Shown here one piece after another: positions 6,201 through 39,368 of a DNA stretch of 39,368 bases. The stretch lies in sequence record OR545379. The stretch is one strand, 5' to 3'. The notes beneath the pieces were generated by a model. That model had not been told where the DNA came from. It was given only the letters and a program-made list of their open reading frames with translations, and did no database searches. The position numbers and the translations under genes were made by a program. Source of the DNA: Escherichia phage Sekstaphage-1. Numbering within the stretch: position 1 is the stretch's first letter; every line of letters starts with the position of its first letter.

Positions 6201-6656
6201 ATGAGAATTTCATTTGACTTAATGAGTCCTTCCTTTCTCTCATGGGATACGGGTCGTCACACTGGCGGCTCTATTCGCAACGGCTATAGAAGGGTTCGTT
6301 ATGAAGGTAAGTGGTTAAACCATCACATACTCATTTGGGAACACTTCAACGGTGCAGTCCCGGAGGGAATGGAAGTAGACCACATTGACCGTAACAAACT
6401 TAACAACGCGCCTAGTAACCTTAGACTTGTGACCCGCTCTGAGAACAACCGAAATCGGTCAGTACACCGGAACAACAAGTCAGGAATCAAAGGTGTCTAC
6501 TGGCACAAACACCGCCAAGTTTGGTACGGTCAGTGTCGAAGGGGCAACAAAACATTTATCACCGCTGGTTGCTCCACGAAGGAACAGGCGGCAGAACTTT
6601 TAGAGAAACTCAAAGAGGAAATTAATTATGATGATTTTCAAAACCGTCCCGTATAA
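6201..6656 (+). CDS. Free-standing HNH homing endonuclease with C-terminal AP2-like DNA-binding domain
   Basis: 151 aa with AAAGGAGG ribosome-binding site; HNH_3-type core WLNHHILIWEHFNGAVPEGMEVDHIDRNKLNNAPSNLRLVTRSEN and AP2-like GIKGVYWHK...KTFITAGCSTKEQAAELLEKL; sits between gene 1.2 and the ligase. Confidence 0.85.
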   Translation: MRISFDLMSPSFLSWDTGRHTGGSIRNGYRRVRYEGKWLNHHILIWEHFNGAVPEGMEVDHIDRNKLNNAPSNLRLVTRSENNRNRSVHRNNKSGIKGVYWHKHRQVWYGQCRRGNKTFITAGCSTKEQAAELLEKLKEEINYDDFQNRPV

Positions 6657-8717: not shown

Positions 8718-9416
8718 ATGGCTGGTTTCAAGAAGAAAATCTATACCTCTGGTCTTGGCACTGCTGAGCCTTATGCTTACCTGAGTAAGCCGGATTATGG
8801 CAACGAAGAGCGTGGCTTCGGCAACCCTCGTGGTGTCTATAAGGTAGACCTGACTCTTTCCAATAAAGACCCGCGCTGTCAGGCGATGGTCGATGAAATC
8901 GTGAAGACTCACGAAGAGGCTTATGCTGCTGCCGTGGAAGAGTTCGAAGCTAACCCGCCGCAGGTACAGCGTGGTAAGAAACCACTGAAACCTTACGAGG
9001 GCGACATGCCGTTCTTCGATAACGGTGACGGTACGACTACCTTCAAGTTCAAATGCTATGCGTCTTTCCAAGATAAGAAGACCAAAGAGACCAAACACAT
9101 CAATCTGGTCGTGGTCGATAGCAAAGGTAAGAAGATTCAGGAAGTTCCGATTATCGGTGGCGGCTCCAAGCTGAAAGTGAAATACTCTCTGGTGCCTTAC
9201 AAGTGGAACACCGCTGTGGGCGCAAGCGTCAAACTGCAACTGGAGTCCGTGATGCTGGTCGAACTGGCTACCTTCGGTGGTGGCGGTGAAGATGAGTGGG
9301 CCGATGAAGTCGAAGATGGTGGTTACACTGCGAGTGAATCCCGTCAGTCCCGCGATGAGCAGGAGTGGCAGGAAGACGAGCACGAAGAAACCCCGGATGA
9401 TGGCGAGGACTTCTAA
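8718..9416 (+). CDS. 2.5: Single-stranded DNA-binding protein (gp2.5)
   Basis: 232 aa, collinear with T7 gp2.5 including the acidic C-terminal tail ending ...DDGEDF. Confidence 0.95.
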   Translation: MAGFKKKIYTSGLGTAEPYAYLSKPDYGNEERGFGNPRGVYKVDLTLSNKDPRCQAMVDEIVKTHEEAYAAAVEEFEANPPQVQRGKKPLKPYEGDMPFFDNGDGTTTFKFKCYASFQDKKTKETKHINLVVVDSKGKKIQEVPIIGGGSKLKVKYSLVPYKWNTAVGASVKLQLESVMLVELATFGGGGEDEWADEVEDGGYTASESRQSRDEQEWQEDEHEETPDDGEDF

Positions 9417-9877
9417 TGGCTGGCGCATACGCTGCGCGAGGTGTACGCAAGGTCGGGGCTTTCCGCTCCGGCCTAGAAGATAAAGTCTCAAAGCAGCTTG
9501 AGAGTAAGGGCATTAAGTTCGACTATGAACTTTGGCGAATCCCTTACGTCATCCCTGAGAGTGACCACTTATACACTCCAGACTTCCTGCTACCTAACGG
9601 TATCTTCATTGAGACCAAAGGGCTGTGGGATTCCGATGACCGCAAGAAACACCTTTTGATTCGTGAGCAACACCCTGAACTGGACATTCGCTTGGTCTTC
9701 TCAAGCAGCCGCTCAAAGCTCTACAAGGGTAGCCCAACAAGCTACGGTGAGTGGTGCGAGAAGCATGGCATTCTGTTTGCTGACAAGCTGATACCAGTGG
9801 CGTGGCTCAAAGAACCCAAGAAGGAGGTTCCGTTCGATAAATTTAAGACTAAGAAAGGAGTAAAGAAAAATGGCTAA
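9416..9877 (+). CDS. 3: Endonuclease I (Holliday-junction resolvase, gp3)
   Basis: 153 aa; MAGAYAARGVRKVGAFRSGLEDKVSKQLESKGIKF... near-identical to T7 gp3. Confidence 0.95.
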   Translation: MAGAYAARGVRKVGAFRSGLEDKVSKQLESKGIKFDYELWRIPYVIPESDHLYTPDFLLPNGIFIETKGLWDSDDRKKHLLIREQHPELDIRLVFSSSRSKLYKGSPTSYGEWCEKHGILFADKLIPVAWLKEPKKEVPFDKFKTKKGVKKNG

Positions 9878-10325
9878 AGTTCAATTCAAACCACGAGCAA
9901 CCACGGAGGCAATCTTTGTGCATTGCTCTGCAACCAAACCGAGCCAGAACGTTGGTGTTCGTGAGATTCGTCAGTGGCATAAAGAGCAAGGCTGGCTGGA
10001 CGTAGGGTATCACTTCATCATCAAGCGCGATGGTACTGTGGAAGCAGGCCGTGATGAACTGGCTGTAGGTTCCCACGCTAAGGGCTACAATCACAACTCT
10101 ATTGGTGTCTGCCTTGTAGGTGGTATCGACGATAAAGGTAAGTTTGACGCTAACTTTACGCCAGCCCAAATGCAATCTCTTCGCTCACTGCTGGTCACAC
10201 TGCTGGCGAAGTACGAAGGGTCTGTTCTCCGTGCTCACCACGATGTTGCACCTAAAGCCTGCCCGTCCTTCGACTTGAAGCGCTGGTGGGAGAAGAACGA
10301 GCTGGTTACATCTGACCGAGGGTAG
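9870..10325 (+). CDS. 3.5: N-acetylmuramoyl-L-alanine amidase (T7-type lysozyme, RNAP inhibitor, gp3.5)
   Basis: 151 aa; MAKVQFKPRATTEAIFVHCSATKPSQNVGVREIRQWHKEQGWLDVGYHFII... matches T7 lysozyme. Confidence 0.95.
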   Translation: MAKVQFKPRATTEAIFVHCSATKPSQNVGVREIRQWHKEQGWLDVGYHFIIKRDGTVEAGRDELAVGSHAKGYNHNSIGVCLVGGIDDKGKFDANFTPAQMQSLRSLLVTLLAKYEGSVLRAHHDVAPKACPSFDLKRWWEKNELVTSDRG

Positions 10326-10329
10326 ACCT

Positions 10330-10437
10330 ATGAGGATGATTTGCATTCGTTGTGACAAGCCTTTGAAGAGTCGCGTACCATCACGTCAGTGTCAGTGCAA
10401 AGACCCGATCAAGGCTGAGGAACACACCGAGAAGTAA
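10330..10437 (+). CDS. Small Cys-rich ORF (gene 3.7 position), putative zinc-ribbon peptide
   Basis: 35-aa ORF MRMICIRCDKPLKSRVPSRQCQCKDPIKAEEHTEK with CxxC...CxC spacing; weak GAGGG ribosome-binding site; stop overlaps the next promoter. Confidence 0.4.
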   Translation: MRMICIRCDKPLKSRVPSRQCQCKDPIKAEEHTEK

Positions 10438-10458
10438 TTAACACTCACTAAAGGGAGA
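10436..10458 (+). promoter_or_regulatory. Phage RNAP promoter (upstream of gene 4)
   Basis: AATTAACaCTCACTAAAGGGAGA, one mismatch to the consensus. Confidence 0.8.
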
Positions 10459-10463
10459 CTTAA

Positions 10464-12250
<1,787 letters not shown>

Positions 12251-12252
<2 letters not shown>

Positions 12253-12273
12253 TTAACCCTCACTAACGGGAAC
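12251..12273 (+). promoter_or_regulatory. Phage RNAP promoter (phi4.3-like)
   Basis: AATTAACCCTCACTAACGGGAac. Confidence 0.8.
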
Positions 12274-12298
12274 AACCTCAAACCATAGGAGACACATC

Positions 12299-12511
12299 AT
12301 GTTTAAATTCATTAACACTTTAGGTAAGCTGGTAGTCAAACTGTACTTCATCGAAGCCAAGAAGCTGGGCAAGAAAGCCAAAGCTGATTCACAGCGTGCC
12401 ATTGAGTTGGCGAAACAGTCCCGTGAGAAATCCGATGCGGCTGTTAGTGGCGTCCATAAGTCGGCAGCGATTGCAGCCAAAGCGCAGTCCATGAGCAAAT
12501 TCTTTGAGTAA
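12299..12511 (+). CDS. 4.3: Gene 4.3 homolog (function unknown)
   Basis: 70-aa ORF with AGGAGA ribosome-binding site; same length and position as T7 gp4.3. Confidence 0.75.
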   Translation: MFKFINTLGKLVVKLYFIEAKKLGKKAKADSQRAIELAKQSREKSDAAVSGVHKSAAIAAKAQSMSKFFE

Positions 12512-12523
12512 TAGGAGCACAAC

Positions 12524-12808
12524 ATGAGTAAATCAATCAAGCACGCAAACACCATCCGTCTGCCGGACACTGCTGACCAGTTCGCTCGTCGGGTACACAT
12601 TAATGTGCGTGGCGAGAAGGTCACAATGGTCTACCGCTGGAAAGACCACAAGTCTCCGAAGGCACACACTCAGCGTATGACCTTGGACGACAAGCAGGTA
12701 GGCCGCCTGATGGGTGCCCTGACTATGGCTGCTGACAATGTGGTTGGGGATAACCGCGAGCGTCTGGTAGAGTTCGGCGCTGGTATGCAAGAGATTATCG
12801 AGAAGTGA
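12524..12808 (+). CDS. 4.5: Gene 4.5 homolog
   Basis: 94-aa ORF with AGGAG ribosome-binding site; position between 4.3 and the RNase III site before gene 5. Confidence 0.7.
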   Translation: MSKSIKHANTIRLPDTADQFARRVHINVRGEKVTMVYRWKDHKSPKAHTQRMTLDDKQVGRLMGALTMAADNVVGDNRERLVEFGAGMQEIIEK

Positions 12809-12846
12809 TAAACTCAAGGTCGCCCAAGGGTGGCCTTTATGATTAT
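12809..12846 (+). promoter_or_regulatory. RNase III processing hairpin (R4.7-like)
   Basis: TAAACTCAAGGTCGCCCAAGGGTGGCCTTTATGATT. Confidence 0.65.
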
Positions 12847-12875
12847 CATTTAGCACGAAACCAAAGGAGGGCATT

Positions 12876-14834
12876 ATGCTCGTAAGTGACATTGAGGCCA
12901 ACAACCTCTTAGAGAAAGTCACCAAGTTTCACTGTGGCGTCATCTATGACTACCGTGATGGTGAGTATCATAGTTATCGTCCGGGCGACTTCGGGGCGTA
13001 TCTGGATGCGCTGGAAGCCGAGGTGAAGCGAGGTGGGCTTATTGTTTTCCATAACGGTCACAAGTATGACGTTCCTACATTGACCAAACTGGCAAAGCTG
13101 CAATTGAACCGAGAGTTCCACCTTCCTCGTGAGAACTGTATCGACACCCTTGTGCTGTCACGCTTGATTCACTCTAACCTAAAGGACACCGATATGGGTC
13201 TTCTACGTTCCGGTAAACTTCCGGGGAAACGCTTTGGGTCTCACGCTCTGGAGGCGTGGGGTTATCGCTTAGGCGAGATGAAGGGTGAATACAAGGATGA
13301 CTTTAAGCGTATGCTTGAAGAGCAAGGCGAAGAATACGTTGACGGAATGGAGTGGTGGAACTTCAATGAAGAGATGATGGACTATAACGTTCAGGACGTT
13401 GTGGTCACTAAGGCTCTCCTTGAGAAGCTACTCTCTGACAAACATTACTTCCCTCCTGAGATTGACTTTACGGACGTAGGTTACACTACGTTCTGGTCAG
13501 AATCCCTTGAGGCCGTTGATGTTGAACATCGCGCTGCATGGCTACTCGCTAAGCAAGAGCGCAATGGATTCCCGTTTGACACGAAAGCAATCGAAGAGTT
13601 GTACGTAGAGTTAGCTGCTAGACGCTCTGAGTTGCTACGTAACTTGACCGAAACGTTTGGCTCGTGGTATCAACCTAAAGGTGGAACAGAAATGTTCTGC
13701 CATCCACGAACAGGTAAGCCACTACCTAAATACCCTCGCATTAAGATACCTAAAGTTGGTGGTATCTTTAAGAAGCCTAAGAACAAGGCACAGCGAGAAG
13801 GCCGTGAGCCTTGCGAACTGGATACCCGCGAGTACGTTGCTGGCGCTCCTTATACTCCAGTGGAGCACGTAGTGTTTAACCCTTCGTCTCGTGACCACAT
13901 CCAGAAGAAACTCCAAGAGGCTGGGTGGGTCCCAACTAAGTTCACCGATAAGGGTGCTCCTGTGGTGGACGATGAGGTACTCGAAGGAGTACGCGTAGAT
14001 GACCCTGAGAAGCAAGCGGCTATCGACCTCATTAAAGAGTACTTGATGATTCAGAAGCGAATCGGACAGTCTGCTGAGGGAGACAAGGCATGGCTTCGTT
14101 ACGTTGCTGAGGACGGTAAGATTCATGGTTCTGTTAACCCTAATGGAGCAGTTACGGGTCGTGCGACCCATGCGTTCCCCAACCTTGCGCAAATTCCGGG
14201 TGTACGTTCTCCTTATGGAGAGCAGTGTCGCGCTGCTTTTGGCGCTGAGCACCATTTGGATGGGATAACTGGTAAGCCTTGGGTTCAGGCAGGTATCGAC
14301 GCATCCGGCCTTGAGTTGCGCTGCTTGGCCCACTTCATGGCTCGCTTTGATAACGGTGAGTATGCTCACGAGATTCTTAATGGTGACATCCACACTAAGA
14401 ACCAGATGGCTGCTGAATTACCTACCCGTGATAACGCTAAGACGTTCATCTATGGGTTCCTCTATGGTGCTGGTGATGAGAAGATTGGGCAGATTGTTGG
14501 TGCTGGTAAAGAGCGCGGTAAGGAACTCAAGAAGAAATTCCTTGAGAACACACCTGCGATTGCAGCACTACGTGAGTCTATACAACAGACGCTTGTCGAA
14601 TCCTCTCAGTGGGTAGCTGGTGAGCAGCAAGTCAAGTGGAAACGCCGCTGGATTAAAGGTCTGGATGGTCGTAAGGTACACGTTCGTAGTCCTCACGCTG
14701 CCCTGAATACCCTACTGCAATCCGCTGGTGCTCTCATCTGCAAACTGTGGATTATCAAGACCGAAGAGATGCTCGTAGAGAAAGGCTTGAAGCACGGCTG
14801 GGATGGGGACTTTGCGTACATGGCATGGGTGCAT
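12876..14834 (+). CDS. 5: DNA polymerase gene 5, exon 1 (codons 1-653)
   Basis: Collinear with T7 gp5 up to ...[13 protein letters not shown]; the ORF then runs into intron sequence and stops after 7 unrelated codons. Confidence 0.95.
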
Positions 14835-15435
14835 AAACTATTTCATTGTGCACATTAAATCTGGTGAACTCGGTGAAACCCTACTGGGGCAATACCGAGC
14901 CAAGCCATAGGGAGGATATATGAGAGGCAAGAAGTTAATTCTTGAGGCCACTGAGACTGGCTGTATCATCCCTACGTCACACAAACTTAATGCCGATGGT
15001 TATTTCAGAAAGAAAACCAATGGCACATTGGAAATGTATCACAGAACGGTGTGGAAGGAGCATAACGGAGACATACCTGATGGCTTCGAGATAGACCATA
15101 AGTGTCGCAATAGGGCTTGCTGTAACATAGAACATTTACAGATGCTTGAAGGTACAGCCCACACTGTTAAGACCAATCGTGAACGCTACGCAGACAGAAA
15201 GGAAACAGCTAGAGAATATTGGCTGGAGACTGGATGTACAGGCATGGCACTCGGTGAGAAGTTTGGTGTGTCGTTCTCTTCCGCTTGTAAGTGGATTAGA
15301 GAATGGAAGGCGTAGAGACTATCCGAAAGGAGTAGGGCCGAGGGTGAGACTCCCTCGTAACCCGAAGCGCCAGACAGTCAACTCAAAGGCTGATGATATA
15401 GTCCGACACTCCTAGTAATAGGAGAATACAGAAAG
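14835..15435 (+). mobile_element. Group I self-splicing intron in the DNA polymerase gene, carrying an HNH endonuclease ORF
   Basis: 601 nt separate two in-frame polymerase segments; exon 1 ends in U (14834); GTGCAC at 14848-14853 can pair with the exon end GTGCAU giving the U-G pair typical of P1; the intron ends in G (15435). Confidence 0.85.
14920..15315 (+). CDS. Intron-encoded HNH homing endonuclease
   Basis: 131 aa with GGGAGGA ribosome-binding site; HNH/zinc motif DGFEIDHKCRNRACCNIEHLQMLEGTAHTVKTN; lies wholly inside the intron. Confidence 0.85.
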   Translation: MRGKKLILEATETGCIIPTSHKLNADGYFRKKTNGTLEMYHRTVWKEHNGDIPDGFEIDHKCRNRACCNIEHLQMLEGTAHTVKTNRERYADRKETAREYWLETGCTGMALGEKFGVSFSSACKWIREWKA

Positions 15436-15591
15436 GATGAAATCCAAGTAGGTTGCCGTACCGAAGAGATTGCTCAGGTGGTCATTGAGACAGCACAAGA
15501 AGCAATGCGCTGGGTTGGAGACCACTGGAACTTCCGGTGTCTTCTGGATACCGAAGGTAAGATGGGTCCTAATTGGGCCGTATGTCACTAA
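15436..15591 (+). CDS. 5: DNA polymerase gene 5, exon 2 (codons 654-704)
   Basis: Encodes DEIQVGCRTEEIAQVVIETAQEAMRWVGDHWNFRCLLDTEGKMGPNWAVCH, the C-terminus of T7 gp5; in frame with exon 1 once the intron is removed, giving 704 aa. Confidence 0.9.
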   Translation, partial: DEIQVGCRTEEIAQVVIETAQEAMRWVGDHWNFRCLLDTEGKMGPNWAVCH

Positions 15592-15610
15592 TTCTATAGG
15601 AGAAATTATT

Positions 15611-15910
15611 ATGGCTATCACCAAGAAATTTAAAGTGTCCTTTGATGTTACCGCAAAGATGTCGTCTGACGTTCAGGCAATCTTAGAGAAAGACATGCTG
15701 CATCTATGTAAGCAGGTCGGCTCAGGTGCGATTGTCCCCGATGGTAAACAGAAGGAAATGATTGTCCAGTTCCTGACCAACGGTATGGAAGGCGTGATGA
15801 CATTCGTAGTACGTACAGCATTTCGTGAGGCAATCAAGGACATGCACGAAGAGTATGCCGATAAGGACTCCTTCAAACTATCTCCTGCAACTGTACGGGA
15901 GGTGTTCTGA
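15611..15910 (+). CDS. 5.5: gp5.5 homolog (in T7 binds H-NS)
   Basis: 99 aa from ATG 15611 (MAITKKFKVSFDVTAKMSSDVQAILEKDMLHLCKQ...), near-identical to T7 gp5.5; AGGAGA ribosome-binding site. Confidence 0.9.
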   Translation: MAITKKFKVSFDVTAKMSSDVQAILEKDMLHLCKQVGSGAIVPDGKQKEMIVQFLTNGMEGVMTFVVRTAFREAIKDMHEEYADKDSFKLSPATVREVF

Positions 15911-26612: not shown

Positions 26613-28856
26613 ATGGCTAGTAAACTAAATAGCGTTTTAGGCAACATGGCGACTCCCGGTATGGAACGACTCCGGGGCGTCAAGGGTATGGACTACCGGG
26701 CAGCAACCATTCAGGCTGAACAACCAAGAGCGAGCCTTCTGGACTCCATTGGTCGATTCGCTAAGGCTGGTGCCGATATGTACATGGCGAAAGATGAACG
26801 TGATAAGCAACGAGCCGATGAGCGCTCCAACGAGATTATCCGTAAGCTGACCCCTGAGCAACGCCGACAGGCTATCCAGAATGGTACACTGCTGTATCAG
26901 GATGACCCATACGCAATGCAAGCCTTGAAGTTCAAGACCGGGCGTAACGCTGCGTTCCTCGTGGACGATGAGGTTCAACAGGGAATCAAAGAGGGACGCT
27001 TCCGTACCCGTGAAGAGTTGGAGCAGTACCGACATTCACGCCTACAGGAACACTCGAAGTCGTTCGCTGAGCAATTCGGCATCAATGAGATGGACGAGGA
27101 ATACCAGAAGGGCTTCAATGCGAACATCACCGAGCGTAACATTGCCCTGTATGGTGCACACGATTCGTTCCTGAGTGACCAAGCGCAGAAGGGTGCAATC
27201 CTGAACTCTAAGGTTGAACTCAACGGTGTCCTGTCTGACCCTGACCTGCTGTCTCGTCCTGAGTCCGGTGAGTTCTTCCAGAACTACATCGACAACTCTT
27301 TAGTTACCGGGATGACAGACAATCAGGCTCAACAGGTTATCTCTTCGTCCCTGAATGACGTGCTACAGCGTCCGGGTGGTGCCACCTTCTTGCAGAACGT
27401 TGAGAACCGCAAGGTGACTCTGAATGGCGCTACGACTACCTATCGTGAACTGATGGGTGACGAGCAGTGGCAGGCCATGATGATTAAGGCACAGCACACT
27501 CAATTCCAGAACAACGCGAAGTTAACCGAGAAGTTCCGATTGGATATTAACTCTGCGATTAACCAAGCGGACACTGGTAAAGGCTGGGAGACTCTTCAAG
27601 GCATCAAGGCTGAACTCGATAAGATTCAACCGGGCGAAGAGATGACTCCTGAGCGCGAGTGGCTAATTGCCGCACAGGAACAGATGCGCACCCGCTTCAA
27701 GCAGGAACAGGCTGAGACAGCCAAGCTAATGGACAAGCAACAGAAGACCCTGAATAAATCTATGGTCATCGACAAGCAGTTCCAGAAGCGCCTCAACGGT
27801 GAATACGTCTCGACCAACTATAAGGACATGCCGACCAACGAGAACACTGGTGAGTTTACACATAGCGATATGGTCAACTACGCGAACCAGAAGTTAGCGG
27901 AAATCGAAGCGATGGACTTAACACCTGAACAGAAAGACAAACTGAAATTGGACTACCTACGGGCAGACGCCAAGGAAGGTGCTTTCCGGGCGGCGTTTGG
28001 TGAGATGATTACGGACGCGGGTAACGAGTGGCAGGCTGCGGTGATTAACGGTAAGATGCCTGAGAGCACACCAGCGATGGACAACCTTCGTCGCATCCGC
28101 AACACTGACCCTGACCTGATTGCCTCTCTGTATCCTGACAAGGCCGAGTTGTTCCTGACGATGGACATGTTGGATAACCAAGGTATCGACACGCAGGTTC
28201 TTATCGACGCTGATAAGTCCCGCGCACAGAAGACCAAGGAGATGCAGTTTGAGGATGACCGAGCGTGGGCTGCTATGATGAACGATTCAACGAATCCTCA
28301 AATCAAGTACATGCCTGCGAGCGTCCAAGGGTATGCCCGGAAGCTTTATGATTCCGTGAAGTACCGGACAGGGAACCCTGACATGGCAACCGAACAGGTC
28401 GCAAAGTTCCTCTCCGATTCGACGACCACGTTCTCCAGTAGCGATGTTGAGGGTGATACCTATGGCGTCCTACCGAAGAACATCCTAACTGTTTCGGATG
28501 ACCCTAAGTCGTGGGAGCAAGGGAAGAACATTCTGGACGAAGCCATTAAGGGAATCACAGCGGCGAACCCTTGGATTACCAACAAGCAACTGACTGTGTA
28601 CCAGCAAGGTGATTCAATCTACCTGATGGACACAACCGGACAGGTTCGCATTCGGTATGACCAAGAGTTGCTCCAGCGTGAGTATCAGCGCACCGCACAG
28701 ATGCAAGCTGAGGCAGCACGAGAGAAAGCTCTCAAAGAGGCCAATAAGCGTGCTCCAATCAGTCGCGTATCGCAGGCTCGCAAAGAAGCACGTAAACGTG
28801 TCCAAGAGAAACGGAATCAGACTCCTAAGTTCATCTATGGACGTAAAGAAGACTAA
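26613..28856 (+). CDS. 15: Internal virion (core) protein C (gp15)
   Basis: 747 aa, the same length as T7 gp15; GGGAGG ribosome-binding site. Confidence 0.9.
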   Translation: MASKLNSVLGNMATPGMERLRGVKGMDYRAATIQAEQPRASLLDSIGRFAKAGADMYMAKDERDKQRADERSNEIIRKLTPEQRRQAIQNGTLLYQDDPYAMQALKFKTGRNAAFLVDDEVQQGIKEGRFRTREELEQYRHSRLQEHSKSFAEQFGINEMDEEYQKGFNANITERNIALYGAHDSFLSDQAQKGAILNSKVELNGVLSDPDLLSRPESGEFFQNYIDNSLVTGMTDNQAQQVISSSLNDVLQRPGGATFLQNVENRKVTLNGATTTYRELMGDEQWQAMMIKAQHTQFQNNAKLTEKFRLDINSAINQADTGKGWETLQGIKAELDKIQPGEEMTPEREWLIAAQEQMRTRFKQEQAETAKLMDKQQKTLNKSMVIDKQFQKRLNGEYVSTNYKDMPTNENTGEFTHSDMVNYANQKLAEIEAMDLTPEQKDKLKLDYLRADAKEGAFRAAFGEMITDAGNEWQAAVINGKMPESTPAMDNLRRIRNTDPDLIASLYPDKAELFLTMDMLDNQGIDTQVLIDADKSRAQKTKEMQFEDDRAWAAMMNDSTNPQIKYMPASVQGYARKLYDSVKYRTGNPDMATEQVAKFLSDSTTTFSSSDVEGDTYGVLPKNILTVSDDPKSWEQGKNILDEAIKGITAANPWITNKQLTVYQQGDSIYLMDTTGQVRIRYDQELLQREYQRTAQMQAEAAREKALKEANKRAPISRVSQARKEARKRVQEKRNQTPKFIYGRKED

Positions 28857-28874
28857 CAGTGATAAGGAGGCTCC

Positions 28875-31800
28875 ATGAGTTACGATAAGAACAAACCTAG
28901 CGAGTTCGATGGGTTATTTCAAAAAGCGGCAGACAATCATGGGGTCTCCTATGACCTGCTTCGTAAATTAGCATTCAACGAATCCAGCTTTAATCCAAAG
29001 GCCAAATCCCCAACTGGCCCGAAGGGTCTCATGCAGTTCACCAAAGGTACAGCCACTGCGCTTGGCCTCAAGGTTACTGACGCTGAGGACGATGACCGTT
29101 ACAACCCTGAGTTGGCTGTGGATGCAGCCGCTCGTCACCTGAGTGACCTCATTCGGAAATACGATGGGGATGAACTCAAAGCTGCCTTGGCGTATAATCA
29201 GGGCGAGGGACGCAACGGTGCTCCGCAGATACAGGCTTATGATAAAGGCGATTGGGCCTCAATATCTGAGGAAGGTCGTAACTACATGCGTAACCTGATG
29301 GATGTAGCCAATAGCCCACGTAAGGGAGACTTGGAGGCGTTCGGTGGTATCACCCCAAAGGCTAAGGGTATTCCCTCTGAGGAAGCCTTTGCGGGAATCG
29401 GGAAGAAGCAGACGGTAGGCACTGACCTGCCGGAGTCAACTGGATTCAAAGTGGAGGGTAAAGAGCAGCAAGCACCTAACATGCCTTATGCTAAGGACTT
29501 TTGGGAAAAGACTGGAACAACACTGGACGAGTTTAATTCGCGTTCAACCTTCTTCGGAATCGGAGATGCCACAAGTGCAGAACTTCACAACTCCGTATTG
29601 GGTGTGGCTTTTCGTGCCGCTCGTAGTGATGACGGTTTTGATTTATTCAAGGACACCATTACGCCGACTCGCTGGAACAGCCATACGTGGACTCCAGAAG
29701 AGTTAGAGCGTATCCGTAAGGAAGTGAAGAATCCAGACTACATTAACGTGGTCACTGGTGGTTCTCCTGAGAATCTGGATGCCCTCATTAAGATGGCTAA
29801 CGACAACTATGCGATGGACGCCCAAGCTGCTGATGCTGGTATTGGCGCTAGGCTGACTGCTGGTATCGTCGGTGCAGGTGTTGACCCACTGAGCTATGTT
29901 CCTCTAGTGGGTGTAGCCGGGAAGGGTCTCAAGGTGGCTAACAAGGCTTTCATTGTTGGTACTCAAAGTGCCGGACTCGCGGTTGCCTCTGAGGGTCTCC
30001 GTACATCAATCGCTGGTGGAGAATCCCACTATGCTGATGCTGCTTTAGGCGGTCTGATGTTCGGTGCTGGGATGAGTGCAATAAGTGATGCTATCGCGGC
30101 TGGTATTCGGCGTTCCCGTGGGAATGAGGTTGTTAATGACTTCGCTCCTATGGCACACCGATTGGAAGCCCGTGAGACCGCTCAGAACACTGGTGGGGAA
30201 GACCTGACCCGTATGCCTAGCGAGAACCGTGTGTTCGACCGTGAGCACGCTGGCGTTGAGTATTCACCTCTGGAGACCGAGCCGGGTGCCGTTGTGTTGC
30301 CTCAAGGTCAAATCCTGAGCGACACCAACCCGCTGAACCCTCAGACTCTTAGCGAGTTCGAGGCGGTCAACCCTGAGCGTGCAGCGCGTGGTATCTCTTT
30401 GGGTGGATTCACTGAGATTGGCTTGAAGACTCTACGCTCAGAGAACCCGACTGTTCGCTCCATTGCGAGTGACCTTGTGCGCTCTCCGACTGGTATGGAG
30501 TCCGGGACTTCTGGTAAGTTCGGCGCGACAGCTTCTGACATTAAGGAGCGACTCCACGCGAACAACCAGCGCACCTACAATCAACTTTATGATGCTGTAC
30601 GCGCTGCAATGAAAGACCCTGAGTTCTCCACTGGTGGTTCCAAGATGAGCCGTAAGGAAATCAGACAGGAAATCTACAAACGTGCAGCCCTAGCTATTGA
30701 GCGACCTGAGCTTCAAGCGAACCTGACAAAGGGTGAGCGGAATGTGATGAATATCCTCAAGCAGCACTTTGACCTAAAACGTGAAATCATGGAGAACCCA
30801 TCAATCTTCGGTAACACCAAGGCAACCAGTATCTTCCCCGGCTCACGCCATAAGGGAACCTACGTGCCTAACGTGTATGACCGAGCACTCAAGATTGATA
30901 TGATTAAACGGTATGGTAATGACGGCTTGCAGCGAGCAATCGCGGAGTCGTGGTTGACCTCTTATCGTGCTCGCCCCGAAGTCAAGGCGCGTGTCGATGA
31001 GTACCTGATGGAACTTAGCGGTCTCAAGTCTGTGCAGGAAGTTACGCCAGAGATGGTGCAGAAGCACGCAATGGATAAGGCGTATGGTATTTCACACACA
31101 GACCAGTTCTCTGCATCCTCTATCATTGAGGACAACATTGAGGGTCTGGTGGGAATCGAGAACAATAACTTCTTGGAAGCCCGCAACATGTTCGACAGTG
31201 ACATGGCGGTGACTCTCCCGGATGGTAACACGTTCTCTGTGAATGACCTGCGTACTTATGACATGGCTGAAATTCTACCTGCATATGACCGCCGAGTTGA
31301 TGGTGATGTTGCAATCATGGGTGGTTCCGGTAAGACCACCAAAGACCTGAAAGATGAAATCATGGCACTAGACAAGCAGTCAGAAGGCAACGGTACGCTG
31401 AAAGGTGAGGTCGAAGCCCTAAAGGACACCGTGAAGATTCTAACTGGTCGCGCTAGAAGGAACCCGGAAGGCGCTTGGGGCACAGCCCTACGCTCAGTCA
31501 ATGACCTTACGTTCTTCGCTAAGAACGCCTACATGGGTGCACAGAACATTACCGAAATCGCTGGTATGCTGGCTAAAGGTAACGTCTCTGCGATAACTCA
31601 TGGAATCCCTATGATTAACGATTGGGTCAACCGTGGGAAACCGCTGCGTGCCTCCGAGATTAAAGAGCTACACGGAATGGTGTTTGGTAAGGAACTAGAC
31701 CAGTTAATCCGTCCGGGACGTGAAGACCATGTACGCCGCCTTCGGGAGTCTACGGACACCAACGCTGCGGTTGCTAACGTGGTCGGTACGATTCGGTTCG

Positions 31801-32837
31801 GCACTCAAGAGTTGGCTGCACGTTCTCCTTGGACGTTGATGCTCAACGGCACCTCCAACTACATTCTAGATGCTGCCCGTCAGGGTGTGCTTGGAGATGT
31901 GGCTGGTGCAGCCCTAGCCGGGAAAGGCTCCAAGTTCGGCAAGGCGAATTACCTTAAGTCTGCCTCAATCAGCCCTGAGCAGTGGAACGGAATCAAGCAG
32001 TTGTTCCGCGACCACGCGACTCGTGAGGCTGACGGTAAGTTTACCATCAAGGATAAACAGGCTTTTGCTAATGACCCACGCTCAATGGACTTGTGGCGTC
32101 TGGCTGACAAGGTGGCTGATGAGACTATACTTCGTCCACACAAGGTTTCCTCACAGGATGCCAAGGCATTCGGTGCCGGAGTTAAGATGGTGATGCAGTT
32201 TAAGAACTTCGTCATCAAGTCCCTGAACTCCCGGTTTGTCCGTAGCTTCTATGAGGCAACGAAGAACAACCGAGCGTTAGACCAAGCGTTGACTCATGTC
32301 ATCTCCTTAGGTCTGGCTGGCGGTTACTACGTTGGTCAGGCACACCTCAAGGCTGCAAGCCTACAGGAACATAAACGTAAGGAGTACCTTAAGAACGCAC
32401 TTGACCCGAAGATGATTGCCCATGCATCAATCTCTCGTAGTTCGCACTTAGGCGCACCATTGGGTATCTATGACATGCTCGCTGGGATGGTTGGCAGCGA
32501 TACCTATAAGTATACACGCTCCACGGTACTCCCTAAAGAGTCTGAGAAGCGCGACCCTAGCAAGGCAGCAACGGGTAGACAGGTGGCTTCAACCATCGCT
32601 GGTGCGGTTGGTGAGCAGGTTCCGGGTTTGGGGTTTATTGGCTCTGTAGGAGCAACAGCAATTAATGCTGCTTCCCTACTGTCTTCTCCCAACAAAACAA
32701 CCGCTCTGGAGTTCCGTACAGGTCTCTTCAACACCTCTCGTGAGTTGATTCCTAATGACCCGCTCTCACAGCAACTCATCATGAAAATCTACGAGGCCAA
32801 CGGCATCCGCATAAAGGAGTCCCCGAAGAAACAATAA
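28875..32837 (+). CDS. 16: Internal virion (core) protein D with N-terminal lytic transglycosylase domain (gp16)
   Basis: 1320 aa collinear with T7 gp16; N-terminal transglycosylase-type segment GPKGLMQFTKGTA...AALAYNQGEG. Confidence 0.95.
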   Translation: MSYDKNKPSEFDGLFQKAADNHGVSYDLLRKLAFNESSFNPKAKSPTGPKGLMQFTKGTATALGLKVTDAEDDDRYNPELAVDAAARHLSDLIRKYDGDELKAALAYNQGEGRNGAPQIQAYDKGDWASISEEGRNYMRNLMDVANSPRKGDLEAFGGITPKAKGIPSEEAFAGIGKKQTVGTDLPESTGFKVEGKEQQAPNMPYAKDFWEKTGTTLDEFNSRSTFFGIGDATSAELHNSVLGVAFRAARSDDGFDLFKDTITPTRWNSHTWTPEELERIRKEVKNPDYINVVTGGSPENLDALIKMANDNYAMDAQAADAGIGARLTAGIVGAGVDPLSYVPLVGVAGKGLKVANKAFIVGTQSAGLAVASEGLRTSIAGGESHYADAALGGLMFGAGMSAISDAIAAGIRRSRGNEVVNDFAPMAHRLEARETAQNTGGEDLTRMPSENRVFDREHAGVEYSPLETEPGAVVLPQGQILSDTNPLNPQTLSEFEAVNPERAARGISLGGFTEIGLKTLRSENPTVRSIASDLVRSPTGMESGTSGKFGATASDIKERLHANNQRTYNQLYDAVRAAMKDPEFSTGGSKMSRKEIRQEIYKRAALAIERPELQANLTKGERNVMNILKQHFDLKREIMENPSIFGNTKATSIFPGSRHKGTYVPNVYDRALKIDMIKRYGNDGLQRAIAESWLTSYRARPEVKARVDEYLMELSGLKSVQEVTPEMVQKHAMDKAYGISHTDQFSASSIIEDNIEGLVGIENNNFLEARNMFDSDMAVTLPDGNTFSVNDLRTYDMAEILPAYDRRVDGDVAIMGGSGKTTKDLKDEIMALDKQSEGNGTLKGEVEALKDTVKILTGRARRNPEGAWGTALRSVNDLTFFAKNAYMGAQNITEIAGMLAKGNVSAITHGIPMINDWVNRGKPLRASEIKELHGMVFGKELDQLIRPGREDHVRRLRESTDTNAAVANVVGTIRFGTQELAARSPWTLMLNGTSNYILDAARQGVLGDVAGAALAGKGSKFGKANYLKSASISPEQWNGIKQLFRDHATREADGKFTIKDKQAFANDPRSMDLWRLADKVADETILRPHKVSSQDAKAFGAGVKMVMQFKNFVIKSLNSRFVRSFYEATKNNRALDQALTHVISLGLAGGYYVGQAHLKAASLQEHKRKEYLKNALDPKMIAHASISRSSHLGAPLGIYDMLAGMVGSDTYKYTRSTVLPKESEKRDPSKAATGRQVASTIAGAVGEQVPGLGFIGSVGATAINAASLLSSPNKTTALEFRTGLFNTSRELIPNDPLSQQLIMKIYEANGIRIKESPKKQ

Positions 32838-32855
32838 ACCCTCACTAAAGGGAGA
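32833..32855 (+). promoter_or_regulatory. Phage RNAP promoter (phi17-like)
   Basis: AATAAACCCTCACTAAAGGGAGA. Confidence 0.85.
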
Positions 32856-32916
32856 GAGGTCACATTCTGGCCTCTTCTCTCTCTATCGCTTAGTGCTAAT
32901 TTATAAAGGAGGTCAC

Positions 32917-34920
32917 ATGGCTACAACTATTAAGACCGTGATGACTTACCCACTGGATGGCTCCACTACGGACTTTAATATTCCGTTCGAGTATCTGGCG
33001 CGTAAGTTCGTCCGAGTGACCCTTATCGGTGTTGACCGAAAGGAACTCATCTTGAATCAAGACTATCGTTTTGCAACTAAGACCACAATCTCCACAACGA
33101 GAGCATTGGGGCCAGCGGACGGATATACTTTGATTGAAATCAGGCGATTCACCTCCGCTACAGATCGTCTGGTTGACTTTACCGACGGCTCTATCCTGCG
33201 GGCATATGATTTGAACATATCTCTGGTTCAGGCCCTTCACGTTGCTGAGGAAGCCCGTGACCTTACCGCTGATACAATTGGCGTTAACAATGATGGGAAC
33301 TTGGATGCTCGTGGTCGTAAGATTGTGAACCTAGCGTTCGCCACCAGTGACTATGATGCTGTCCCTCTGAAGCAGGTTAAGGAACGTGAGACCTCTGTGT
33401 GGAGTGCTGTTGCTAAAGCTGATGAACATGCTAACCGTTCTAACACTGAGGCTAACCGTTCTCGTGATGAGGCCAACCGTGCTCAACGTGAAGCTGACCG
33501 CTCAACGCAACAGGCAGGTGTCTCTACGCAACAAGCGGTTGAGTCCAAGAAGCAAGCTGACCGTTCCAACTCTGAGGCCAACCGTGCTAAAGGTTACGCT
33601 GATAGTATGCCAGCCAGTGTTGAAGCCGCAAAGGGTCACGCTGACCGTTCCAATAAGGAAGCTGACCGTGCTCGTGATGAGGCCAATCGTGCTGCTGGAG
33701 AAGTCACTAAGGCGGCTGCTGAGGTTGCCAAGGCTGCTGCACATGTTGAGACCGCTAAGGGACATGCTGACCGAGCCAACACTGAGGCAAACCGCTCCAA
33801 GAGTGAAGCTGACCGTGCAAAGACCGAGGCTGACAAGTTAGGCAACATGAATGCACTTGCAGGGGCTGTTGAAAGTGTATCAGGCAATGATGTACGCTTT
33901 AAGGGTAAAGTAAGTGGGCGCAGTCTGACTCTACATAATGATGCTAAAGGCGCTGGGACTCAACCAGTAGACCAAGTGTGGAATCAGTGGCGTGGTCAGG
34001 ACTCTAAGGAGACTGTGTGGGAACAGTGGATTCAAGCTGGGACAAAACGAATGGACTACTATGCGTTCACTAACACCGACCCGGCAACGTGGCCTGAAGG
34101 TCGTTCCAATAGCAAAGGACACCATAGCTTCTATGGTGACGTTCTGTTTGCTGGTGGTAACGTCGAGATGCACGGGAACCTTAAGGTAAACGCAGTTGAG
34201 TCTAGAAATAACGTGTTCATCTCCGACAAAGCCGCAAGTTTCAAGAGTAACACACATGGTGGTGGCTGGAACCAGTGGACTAGTAGCTTGAATCCAGACC
34301 TACAGCATGATATTGCTGGACAAGGGGACGTTGCATATCTCCTTGAGAGGGCTACAATTTGGGGCAAAGAACACCTGTATGCCAAGTGCTTATATAACAA
34401 CGGCACTGGCGCTAACTTCTTTATCAGGCAATATCTGCGAGGCACCTATTTCGACCTACGCTCCGATGGTGTCCTTGCCTGCTCTTCTGGTTGGAACATC
34501 CCAGCCGATGGTAACCTATATATCAAGAAGTACGGAATGTACATTGATGCGTGGGTAAATAATCGTCTGTCCGAACATGCCTACAACAAAGGAGAAGTGA
34601 ACAACTTGGTCAACGGTCGTCTTACCACTGGTCAGGGTGATGGTCGCTATGTCCGCAAGAACGCTGGGTGGGCTGAGGTCTGGAGCGGCCATGCTGGTGG
34701 TGGTGTTTCCGTAGGTCTCTCACAGGATGTCCGATGGAGAACTATCTGGATTCAAACTAATGGGCGCTGGAACGCTGTTCCTATTGGTGACGACGCACGA
34801 TACTTCATCTCGTCTGATGGTGGTTGGCTTAAGTTCACAATCTCTAACAACGGGAGAACTTTCCGTAATGATGCTGACCGTAGTTCTGTGCCTACGAGAA
34901 TCTTGATTCAAAACCAATAA
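32917..34920 (+). CDS. 17: Tail fibre protein (gp17)
   Basis: 667 aa from ATG 32917 (MATTIKTVMTYPLDGSTTDFNIPFEYLARKF...); N-terminal 150 aa and the C-terminal tip (...WSGHAGGGVSVGLSQDVRWRTIWIQ...) are T7 gp17-like; the centre is repeat-rich. Confidence 0.93.
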   Translation: MATTIKTVMTYPLDGSTTDFNIPFEYLARKFVRVTLIGVDRKELILNQDYRFATKTTISTTRALGPADGYTLIEIRRFTSATDRLVDFTDGSILRAYDLNISLVQALHVAEEARDLTADTIGVNNDGNLDARGRKIVNLAFATSDYDAVPLKQVKERETSVWSAVAKADEHANRSNTEANRSRDEANRAQREADRSTQQAGVSTQQAVESKKQADRSNSEANRAKGYADSMPASVEAAKGHADRSNKEADRARDEANRAAGEVTKAAAEVAKAAAHVETAKGHADRANTEANRSKSEADRAKTEADKLGNMNALAGAVESVSGNDVRFKGKVSGRSLTLHNDAKGAGTQPVDQVWNQWRGQDSKETVWEQWIQAGTKRMDYYAFTNTDPATWPEGRSNSKGHHSFYGDVLFAGGNVEMHGNLKVNAVESRNNVFISDKAASFKSNTHGGGWNQWTSSLNPDLQHDIAGQGDVAYLLERATIWGKEHLYAKCLYNNGTGANFFIRQYLRGTYFDLRSDGVLACSSGWNIPADGNLYIKKYGMYIDAWVNNRLSEHAYNKGEVNNLVNGRLTTGQGDGRYVRKNAGWAEVWSGHAGGGVSVGLSQDVRWRTIWIQTNGRWNAVPIGDDARYFISSDGGWLKFTISNNGRTFRNDADRSSVPTRILIQNQ

Positions 34921-34967
34921 TGGAATACAACGAGGCCACGGATGGTCTCAACAATAAGGAGGACACA

Positions 34968-35174: not shown

Positions 35175-35436
35175 CGATAAATCTTTGATTCAATTCCTTG
35201 AGATGCTGGACACTGAGATGGCTCAACGTATGCTTGCTGACTTGCAGAACGATGAACGACGCACACCTCAACTGTACAACGCAATCGGGAAACTATTAGA
35301 GCGCCACAAATTCCAAGTCTCCAAGTTACAGCCAGACCGTAACATCCTTGGTGGACTGGCAGATGGACTCGAAGAGTACCAGAACATGGTGGGCGCTGAT
35401 GGTCTCACTGAAGACGAGAAGTACACGCTTAACTGA
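35167..35436 (+). CDS. 18: Terminase small subunit (gp18)
   Basis: 89 aa, the same length as T7 gp18; GAAGGAGGG ribosome-binding site. Confidence 0.9.
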   Translation: MSNDKSLIQFLEMLDTEMAQRMLADLQNDERRTPQLYNAIGKLLERHKFQVSKLQPDRNILGGLADGLEEYQNMVGADGLTEDEKYTLN

Positions 35437-35439
35437 TGG

Positions 35440-35478
35440 TAATACTCAAGGTCATCTTAATGGTGGCCTTTATGGATT
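35440..35478 (+). promoter_or_regulatory. RNase III processing hairpin (R18.5-like)
   Basis: TAATACTCAAGGTCATCTTAATGGTGGCCTTTATGGATT. Confidence 0.6.
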
Positions 35479-35494
35479 ATCAATAGGAGGTGAT

Positions 35495-35896
35495 ATGGAA
35501 GGAATGTATAGAAGTGGTGGTTACTGGAAGGTTACTATAAACGGTAAAGTACACGGTGTACACAGGTTGTTGTGGGAAGCTGCCTATGGCTCAATACCAG
35601 ATGGTTATGTTATAGACCACATTGACAGAGATGGTCTTAATAATTCTCTTGATAACTTACGGTGCATACCGAAGGGAGCTAACAAGGCAAACACTGTATC
35701 CTCAAGGGACTTACCGAAGGGAGTATACTCTCGGTTTGCCAAGCGACTTAACTGCATTGTGTACTATGGGGATATTAGAATGGGAGGTGTGAAGAAAACA
35801 CATGCTCCTACTAAGAATCTGAAGGAAGTCGTGGACTGGTCTATTAAGACTCACAAGCAGATGCTGGGGGAAACATATGGGATTCAAAACAGTTAA
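35495..35896 (+). CDS. Free-standing HNH homing endonuclease with AP2-like domain
   Basis: 133 aa from ATG 35495 with AGGAGG ribosome-binding site; HNH core HRLLWEAAYGSIPDGYVIDHIDRDGLNNSLDNLRCIP; sits between gene 18 and gene 18.5. Confidence 0.85.
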   Translation: MEGMYRSGGYWKVTINGKVHGVHRLLWEAAYGSIPDGYVIDHIDRDGLNNSLDNLRCIPKGANKANTVSSRDLPKGVYSRFAKRLNCIVYYGDIRMGGVKKTHAPTKNLKEVVDWSIKTHKQMLGETYGIQNS

Positions 35897-38079: not shown

Positions 38080-38514
38080 ATGTTTGACGTGAGGTATGAC
38101 CCGGATGTGCCGGGGTGCCTCTCTAACTCTAAGGGTGAGCAACTCGCAGTTCTACAAGGAGAATACTTCAAGTGGAACGGCGGGAGTGCTCATCGTATTA
38201 TATGGGAAGGCTTCAATGGGAGGATACCAGACGGTTACATGGTTGACCATATAAACCGCAACAAGCAGGACAATCGGATAGAGAACCTACGACTGGTCAC
38301 TCGGTCCCAGAATGTCCACAACTCCAAGCGTAAGAGGGCCGATGGGATGCCCAAAGGAATTACAGCACGCCAGCGGGACTTTAGGATTCTGGTCCATAAG
38401 GATTGTAAGAAGTACGTAAGGTACGCACCGACACTTGCGGAAGCCATAAAGGTCCGCGAGGAGCTTGTAGAGTCCTTGGGCCTGTCTGCATATTATGTCG
38501 ATTCATCCGCATAA
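38080..38514 (+). CDS. Free-standing HNH homing endonuclease with AP2-like domain
   Basis: 144 aa with AAGGAGG ribosome-binding site; HNH core HRIIWEGFNGRIPDGYMVDHINRNKQDNRIENLRLVTRSQN and AP2-like KGITARQRDFRILVHKDCKKYVRYAPTLAEAIKVREEL; starts 10 nt after the gene 19 stop. Confidence 0.85.
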   Translation: MFDVRYDPDVPGCLSNSKGEQLAVLQGEYFKWNGGSAHRIIWEGFNGRIPDGYMVDHINRNKQDNRIENLRLVTRSQNVHNSKRKRADGMPKGITARQRDFRILVHKDCKKYVRYAPTLAEAIKVREELVESLGLSAYYVDSSA

Positions 38515-39141: not shown

Positions 39142-39368
39142 TCTCACAGTGTAAGAACCTCAAGTACCCCCATAGCCCTCTTAAAGCCACCAAAAGGAAG
39201 CCCTACCCCTAGGGTTTAACCTTCGGTTAACCTTGGGTCTCTCATCAAGTGGCCTATAGGATAGCCTAAAGTGGTGCCTAAAGTCAATACCTAAAGTGAT
39301 GGCTGCCTATTGGAGACTTAAAGAGTGTCCTAGTGTACCAGTTCGATAGTACATCTCTATGTATCCCT
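39142..39368. repeat. Right direct terminal repeat (TR)
   Basis: Identical to 1..227. Confidence 0.9.

Follow-up and report, generated by a model that had tools for sequence, protein, structure and literature searches.

The DNA polymerase genes of phages PhiI and W31 contain self-splicing group IA2 introns that carry an HNH open reading frame (ORF) in P6a and lie at position 881 in the numbering of E. coli Pol I, as summarized in passages of PMC3428280 that cite Bonocora and Shub (2004, J Bacteriol 186:8153). Group I introns with HNH endonucleases have also been described in the family A polymerase genes of SPO1, SP82, and Bastille (I-HmuI, I-HmuII, I-BasI) and of cyanophage Pf-WMP3 (I-PfoP3I); the same passages place these introns at site 674 of the E. 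coli numbering, not at 881. Closer to the locus studied here, 13a (EU734174), K1F (DQ111067), and Bas102 (PQ850620) have a homologous intron at the identical site, with the polymerase coding sequence (CDS) annotated as a join and an internal endonuclease CDS. T3 shows another arrangement, in which gene 5.3, a free-standing HNH homing endonuclease gene, lies just downstream of gene 5. Arrangements of this type are discussed in sections of PMC10448857, where the interplay of introns and free-standing endonucleases is termed collaborative homing (citing Bonocora and Shub 2009).

Here we describe the gene 5 locus of Escherichia phage Sekstaphage-1 (record OR545379; 39,368 nucleotides, analyzed as a whole and referred to below as the window). 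The window is a complete linear T7-type, T3-like genome with direct terminal repeats at 1-227 and 39142-39368. Judged from its sequence, the segment that interrupts gene 5 between the codons for His653 and Asp654 is almost certainly a mobile self-splicing group IA2 intron. The intron is already known, being essentially the same element as the one described in phage PhiI in 2004.

Gene 5 is uninterrupted in T7, phiA1122, and T3, all three of which are without the 601 nt that separate the two gene 5 segments of the window (Table 1). When the segments are joined, the 704-residue product is identical to T7 gp5 at 688 positions (97.7%) and to phiA1122 gp5 at 685, with no gaps in either alignment. 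The initial annotation, which had described a two-piece gene 5 with these coordinates and a 704-residue polymerase collinear with T7 gp5, was therefore exact, and the 601-nt insert splitting gene 5 is confirmed as an observation. The junction reads GTGCAT|GATGAA in the window and GTACATGATGAA in T7. Its placement is unambiguous and cannot be shifted because the bases at the two boundaries differ, with none common to both. If the insert is left in place, the exon 1 frame reaches a TAA stop at 14856-14858, seven codons into the intron, and yields a product of 660 residues without Asp654. Asp654 of T7 gp5 is a catalytic residue, and VH|DE, the motif restored at the junction, is the polymerase active-site motif.

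Table 1. Coordinates of the gene 5 exons, the predicted intron, its helices, and its ORF in the window
Feature	Position	Strand	Extent or basis
Gene 5 (DNA polymerase) exon 1, residues 1-653	12876..14834	+	1959 nt, 653 codons, ending ...FAYMAWVH; last base U14834
Predicted group I intron, subgroup IA2	14835..15435	+	601 nt, last base G15435; Rfam RF00028, helices, absence from T7/T3/phiA1122
P1, exon/intron GUGCAU|AA (14829-14836) with guide sequence UUGUGCAC (14846-14853)	14829..14853	+	8 bp
P10 guide half AUUUCAUU	14840..14847	+	8 bp with the first 8 nt of exon 2, 15436-15443
P3	14860-66 with 15368-74	+	4/7 pairs covary
P4	14870-75 with 14893-98	+	Hand-drawn, fold
P5	14879-82 with 14886-89	+	Hand-drawn, fold, covariation
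P6	14899-901 with 15309-11	+	Hand-drawn, fold, covariation
P6a	14905-08 (CCAU) with 15303-06	+	Pair types differ in Aeromonas PT2, SU7, RCIP0053
Shine-Dalgarno-like GGGAGG	14910..14915	+	4 nt upstream of the endonuclease start codon; invariant in the intron alignment
Predicted HNH homing endonuclease, I-TslI orthologue	14920..15315	+	131 aa; Pfam HNH_3, PHROG 6254, I-TslI identity
P7	15317-21 with 15399-403	+	Hand-drawn
P7.1, GAAA loop	15322-31	+	Hand-drawn, fold
GUA linker	15332-34	+	Joins P7.1 and P7.2
P7.2	15335-63	+	Hand-drawn, fold, covariation
P8	15375-92	+	Hand-drawn, fold, covariation
P9, GUAA loop	15409-24	+	Hand-drawn, fold, covariation
Gene 5 exon 2, residues 654-704 and stop codon	15436..15591	+	51 codons + stop, DEIQVGCRTEE...NWAVCH; first residue Asp654

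A scan of the whole window against Rfam at gathering thresholds reported nothing, and the intron becomes visible only under E-value thresholds. The match is then to RF00028, at 14825..15425 on the plus strand and over model positions 1-253 (full length), with 44.0 bits against a gathering score of 50. Its E value is 7e-10 in a local search and 3.8e-8 for the whole window, in which it is the only Rfam match. The group I core, whose recovery by covariance modeling the initial annotation had set as a check, is matched over the full length of the model with a highly significant E value but a score under the curated cutoff. The shortfall is probably due to the 394-nt insert in P6a and to the lack of P2; the same model also matches the intron homologues, at 26-45 bits. 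The insert does not owe its resemblance to chance, since the E value is low for the whole window and the same 601-nt element recurs in 39 phage records.

The unconstrained minimum-energy fold of the intron with its ORF deleted has a free energy of -70.3 kcal/mol (z = -4.16; none of 200 shuffles was as stable) and recovers P1, P3, P4, P5, P6, P6a, P7.1, P7.2, P8, and P9, but not the P7 pseudoknot. By these predictions the pre-mRNA is able to fold into a group I core made up of P1, P3-P9, and P7.1/P7.2. P2 is absent from the window intron, whose 5' core strands lie within 14860..14901. In the window P7.1 and P7.2 stand between P7 and P3' and are connected by the GUA linker, an arrangement that PMC3428280, in its passages on these introns, gives as the signature of subgroup IA2.

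Comparison with related introns lends support to this fold. The 5' splice site is marked by the U14834·G14848 wobble within P1, which is invariant in 15 introns, as are the presence of all eight P1 pairs and the insertion site itself, CAT|GAYGAR (His|Asp-Glu), in 15 of 15. The exon end GTGCAU finds its complement in GTGCAC at 14848-14853, and the boundary features that had been put forward for this intron (a 5' exon ending in U, a P1 pairing with a terminal U·G, and a final G) are all present. Among 12 close homologues, 99.4% of the pair cells are standard, compared with 39-45% when the partners are slid. Changes on both sides of a pair occur in four pairs among these closest homologues (P1, P5, P7.2, P9), all of them from the K1F clade, whose guide region is also 3 nt shorter than that of the window.

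A search with the ribozyme alone led to more distant relatives in the polymerase genes of Aeromonas phage PT2, SU7, Klebsiella phage RCIP0053, and Edwardsiella phages, and their introns match RF00028 at 26-39 bits. Because a MAFFT alignment of four distant introns misaligned SU7 in P7.2 and P8, the helices were taken from sequence anchors and local folding. Across the 15 introns, compensatory changes were found in P1, P10, P3, P5, P6, P6a, P7.2, P8, and P9. P8 is represented by four unrelated sequences, each of which forms a hairpin, and P9 by five versions. P4, P7, and most of P1 are invariant and hence uninformative on pairing either way. In SU7 the exon end ATGCAT faces the guide GUGCAU, such that a G-C pair of P1 has become A-U with exon and guide changed together. 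At the guide position that faces the third base of the Glu655 codon, introns next to a GAA codon have U and those next to a GAG codon have C (U-A to C-G across the relatives), and P10 is supported because the guide follows the codon in this way.

Several of these relatives have features of their own. SU7 is a 77-kb phage of the Gordonclarkvirinae with its intron at the same His|Asp-Glu site, and a P2 hairpin, unlike in the window copy, is present in RCIP0053 and Edwardsiella phage DT115P1. In the intron copy of Citrobacter phage NS1 (193-803 of the NS1 locus), P6 contains 10 extra nucleotides and pairs are disrupted in P7, P7.1, and P7.2; the copy stands at the start of its record, has no recognizable exon 2 past the terminal G, and may be either an intron in decay or an artifact of assembly.

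The endonuclease gene, which was absent from the initial annotation, is placed in the loop of P6a. Its product matches Pfam HNH_3 over residues 40-75 (E = 7e-16) and PHROG 6254 (E = 2.9e-47), with weak helix-turn-helix matches at the C-terminus. It shares a 90% cluster with I-TslI of phage PhiI (AAV53690.1), to which it is identical at 129 of 131 residues (98%). The two amino-acid differences separate proteins of different isolates, and the likeness to PhiI I-TslI is known at the protein level. A PDB sequence search with the endonuclease matched no solved structure, the solved HNH structures included. The dN/dS of the ORF is 0.05-0.10 against most homologues, from which we conclude that the protein is maintained under purifying selection; against the near-identical Bas102 copy it is 0.25. 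No T3- or T7-type promoter was found within the intron, while 13 T3-type promoters occur elsewhere in the window, and we therefore presume that the gene 5 transcript serves as the mRNA of the ORF. Among coliphages, T4 has self-splicing group I introns in conserved parts of nucleotide-metabolism genes, namely, td, nrdB, and nrdD (sunY), most with homing endonuclease ORFs that are looped out of the core, are of GIY-YIG or other types, and have late promoters of their own. The window intron differs from these in its host gene and in having no internal phage promoter.

The ORF and the ribozyme surrounding it have diverged to different extents. Relative to 13a, K1F, and Bas102, the ribozyme parts of the window intron are 92-99% identical, whereas the endonuclease is only 78-86% identical at the protein level. 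In the comparison with 13a, where the ORF (14920-15315) corresponds to 2534-2929 of the 13a locus, the ribozyme parts are 97.6-98.3% identical, the center of the ORF is 63-80% identical, and the ends are 87-100% identical. The synonymous divergence of the ORF (dS 1.70; dN/dS 0.05) is ∼6-7 times that of the gene 5 exons (dS 0.26). Uneven divergence of this kind hints at an exchange of endonuclease alleles within a conserved intron.

Of the free-standing proteins encoded near gene 5 in related phages, T3 gp5.3 is a homologue of the intron endonuclease (48% identical over residues 6-94, E = 2e-32) and comes from the same genome neighborhood. It is shorter (101 aa), is not housed in an intron, and is without the C-terminal helix-turn-helix-like tail. 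T7 gp5.3, considered as a second candidate relative, is unrelated (E = 9), leaving T3 gp5.3 as the only homologue of the two. A literature text search for F-TslI found nothing. The window also encodes three more free-standing HNH_3 ORFs on the plus strand, at 6201-6656, 35348-35896, and 38080-38514 (Pfam E = 2.6e-20, 1.6e-17, and 8.3e-23), located upstream of the ligase gene, between genes 18 and 18.5, and past the terminase gene, in segments without a T3 counterpart.

With these features in hand, the locus can be set beside the introns of PhiI and W31, as described in the relevant passages of PMC3428280. It shares with them the gene, the site after the His of VHDE (881), P7.1 and P7.2 with GUA between them, and the HNH ORF in P6a. 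The initial annotation had pointed to gene 5 introns in PhiI and W31 (Bonocora and Shub) and had suggested that the element may be known rather than new. The reference to PhiI and W31 is borne out by the citation in that source and by the identity to I-TslI, and the suggestion by the same identity together with the records of 13a, K1F, and Bas102, which are already annotated as spliced. The interpretation as a gene 5 group I intron is supported.

Other accounts of the insert can be weighed against these data. The records of VSG32, SYGE1, Ro45lw, Sal_R1S, and PC127 list a truncated polymerase and small ORFs, which speaks for a gene 5 that is truly split by a free-standing endonuclease gene, with a polymerase assembled from two associating polypeptides (residues 1-660 and a C-terminal piece) and no RNA splicing. 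We consider this very improbable, since there is neither a start codon nor a ribosome-binding site at 15436, and the first in-frame start, GTG at 15478, would give a peptide of 37 residues from which Asp654 and Glu655 are lost. The sequences on both sides of the ORF, moreover, make up a group I core with covarying pairs, and among homologues the conservation of the ribozyme parts (92-99%) exceeds what would be expected of a neutral spacer.

It might also be proposed that the insert is the decayed remnant of an intron that no longer splices, leaving the polymerase gene a pseudogene; the Rfam score lies below the gathering score, and splicing of the window copy is predicted from its sequence. 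The window copy, however, has retained all its helices along with a complete ORF that is under purifying selection, and a near-identical copy is present in the independently isolated phage VSG32. T7-type phages depend on gp5, which likewise argues against a pseudogene. The endonuclease, in addition, is 98% identical to that of PhiI, and the PhiI and W31 introns self-splice according to the passages of PMC3428280 that treat them. Taken with these points, loss of splicing appears highly unlikely. Nothing was found in favor of an intein or of a group II intron, and the chance of either is negligible, as both are refuted by the in-frame stop and the RF00028 match: exon 1 stops after seven codons such that an intein could not be translated in frame, the ORF contains an HNH domain only and no reverse transcriptase, and the 601 nt match RF00028 and no other Rfam family.

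For the group I intron, which we prefer over these accounts, the following course of events can be proposed. By analogy with group I chemistry, an external guanosine would attack after U14834, the guide sequence would hold the freed exon 1, and P10 would align exon 2. Exon 1 would then attack after G15435 to restore the 704-residue frame at VH|DE; without splicing, translation would end at the stop seven codons into the intron and the polymerase would be without its active-site Asp. The HNH endonuclease gene in the P6a loop would be read from the gene 5 transcript by means of its own putative ribosome-binding site. By homology to I-TslI, the endonuclease would be expected to cleave polymerase genes that lack the intron, close to the insertion site, and repair from an intron-bearing copy would spread the intron along with adjoining exon sequence. 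We infer homing because the endonuclease resembles I-TslI and because the distribution of the intron is patchy, with copies in 39 of the 778 phage records that match gene 5. The carriers belong to Teseptimavirus, Teetrevirus, Kayfunavirus, and Berlinvirus.

The surroundings of the insertion site are mosaic. Exon 1 is 99.9% identical to T3 gene 5 as far as 14828, and the 5.4 kb from 9404 to 14828 contain only 5 mismatches to T3. This near-identity ends abruptly at 14829, 6 nt ahead of the intron, and the switch, like the patchy distribution, is indirect evidence of mobility. Exon 2 is 94.9% identical to T7 and 78% to T3, as part of a T7-type patch that comprises the intron, exon 2, and most of gene 5.5 and extends to about 15880 (95-96% identical to T7/YpsP-G, about 76% to T3). 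Beyond about 15880, identity to T3 returns to 97-99%. The free-standing HNH gene 5.3 of T3 is absent from the window, with the intron cassette in its place. T3 gene 5 has clustered silent differences around the insertion site, and this silent-site variant of the target is gone from the window genome. The loss of gene 5.3 and the silent differences of T3 fit the interplay of introns and free-standing endonucleases set out in the pertinent sections of PMC10448857. As a tentative proposal, which we hold to be possible rather than probable, two rival selfish cassettes may have been swapped very recently, in either direction, at this one locus, and, separately, endonuclease alleles may have been exchanged inside a fixed ribozyme scaffold. 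Elsewhere in the genome, identity to T3 falls to just 64-73% in the internal core protein genes (about 27000-33300), and the tail-fiber region (33337-34932) has no T3 match; the genome is therefore mosaic well past the gene 5 locus.

The practical value of these results lies in the annotation of gene 5 introns. Default Rfam scans miss the intron (44 bits against a cutoff of 50), and many GenBank records consequently mis-list the locus. VSG32 is 99.9% identical to the window across gene 5 and yet is annotated with a truncated polymerase, as are SYGE1, Sal_R1S, PC127, and Ro45lw. In such relatives the polymerase has been ended at the stop within the intron, exon 2 has been entered as "gp5.4" or as a "DNA polymerase" fragment, or the gene 5.5 ORF has been over-extended upstream across exon 2, from TTG 15470 (15470-15910 in the window). 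For the biology of these phages the locus adds little, as one more copy of the gene 5 intron of PhiI, W31, 13a, and K1F. Comparative material on the competition and coevolution of homing endonucleases and introns in T7-like phages may nonetheless come from three features of the locus: the break in T3 identity at the insertion site, the substitution of the intron cassette for gene 5.3, and the unusually high divergence seen in the endonuclease core.
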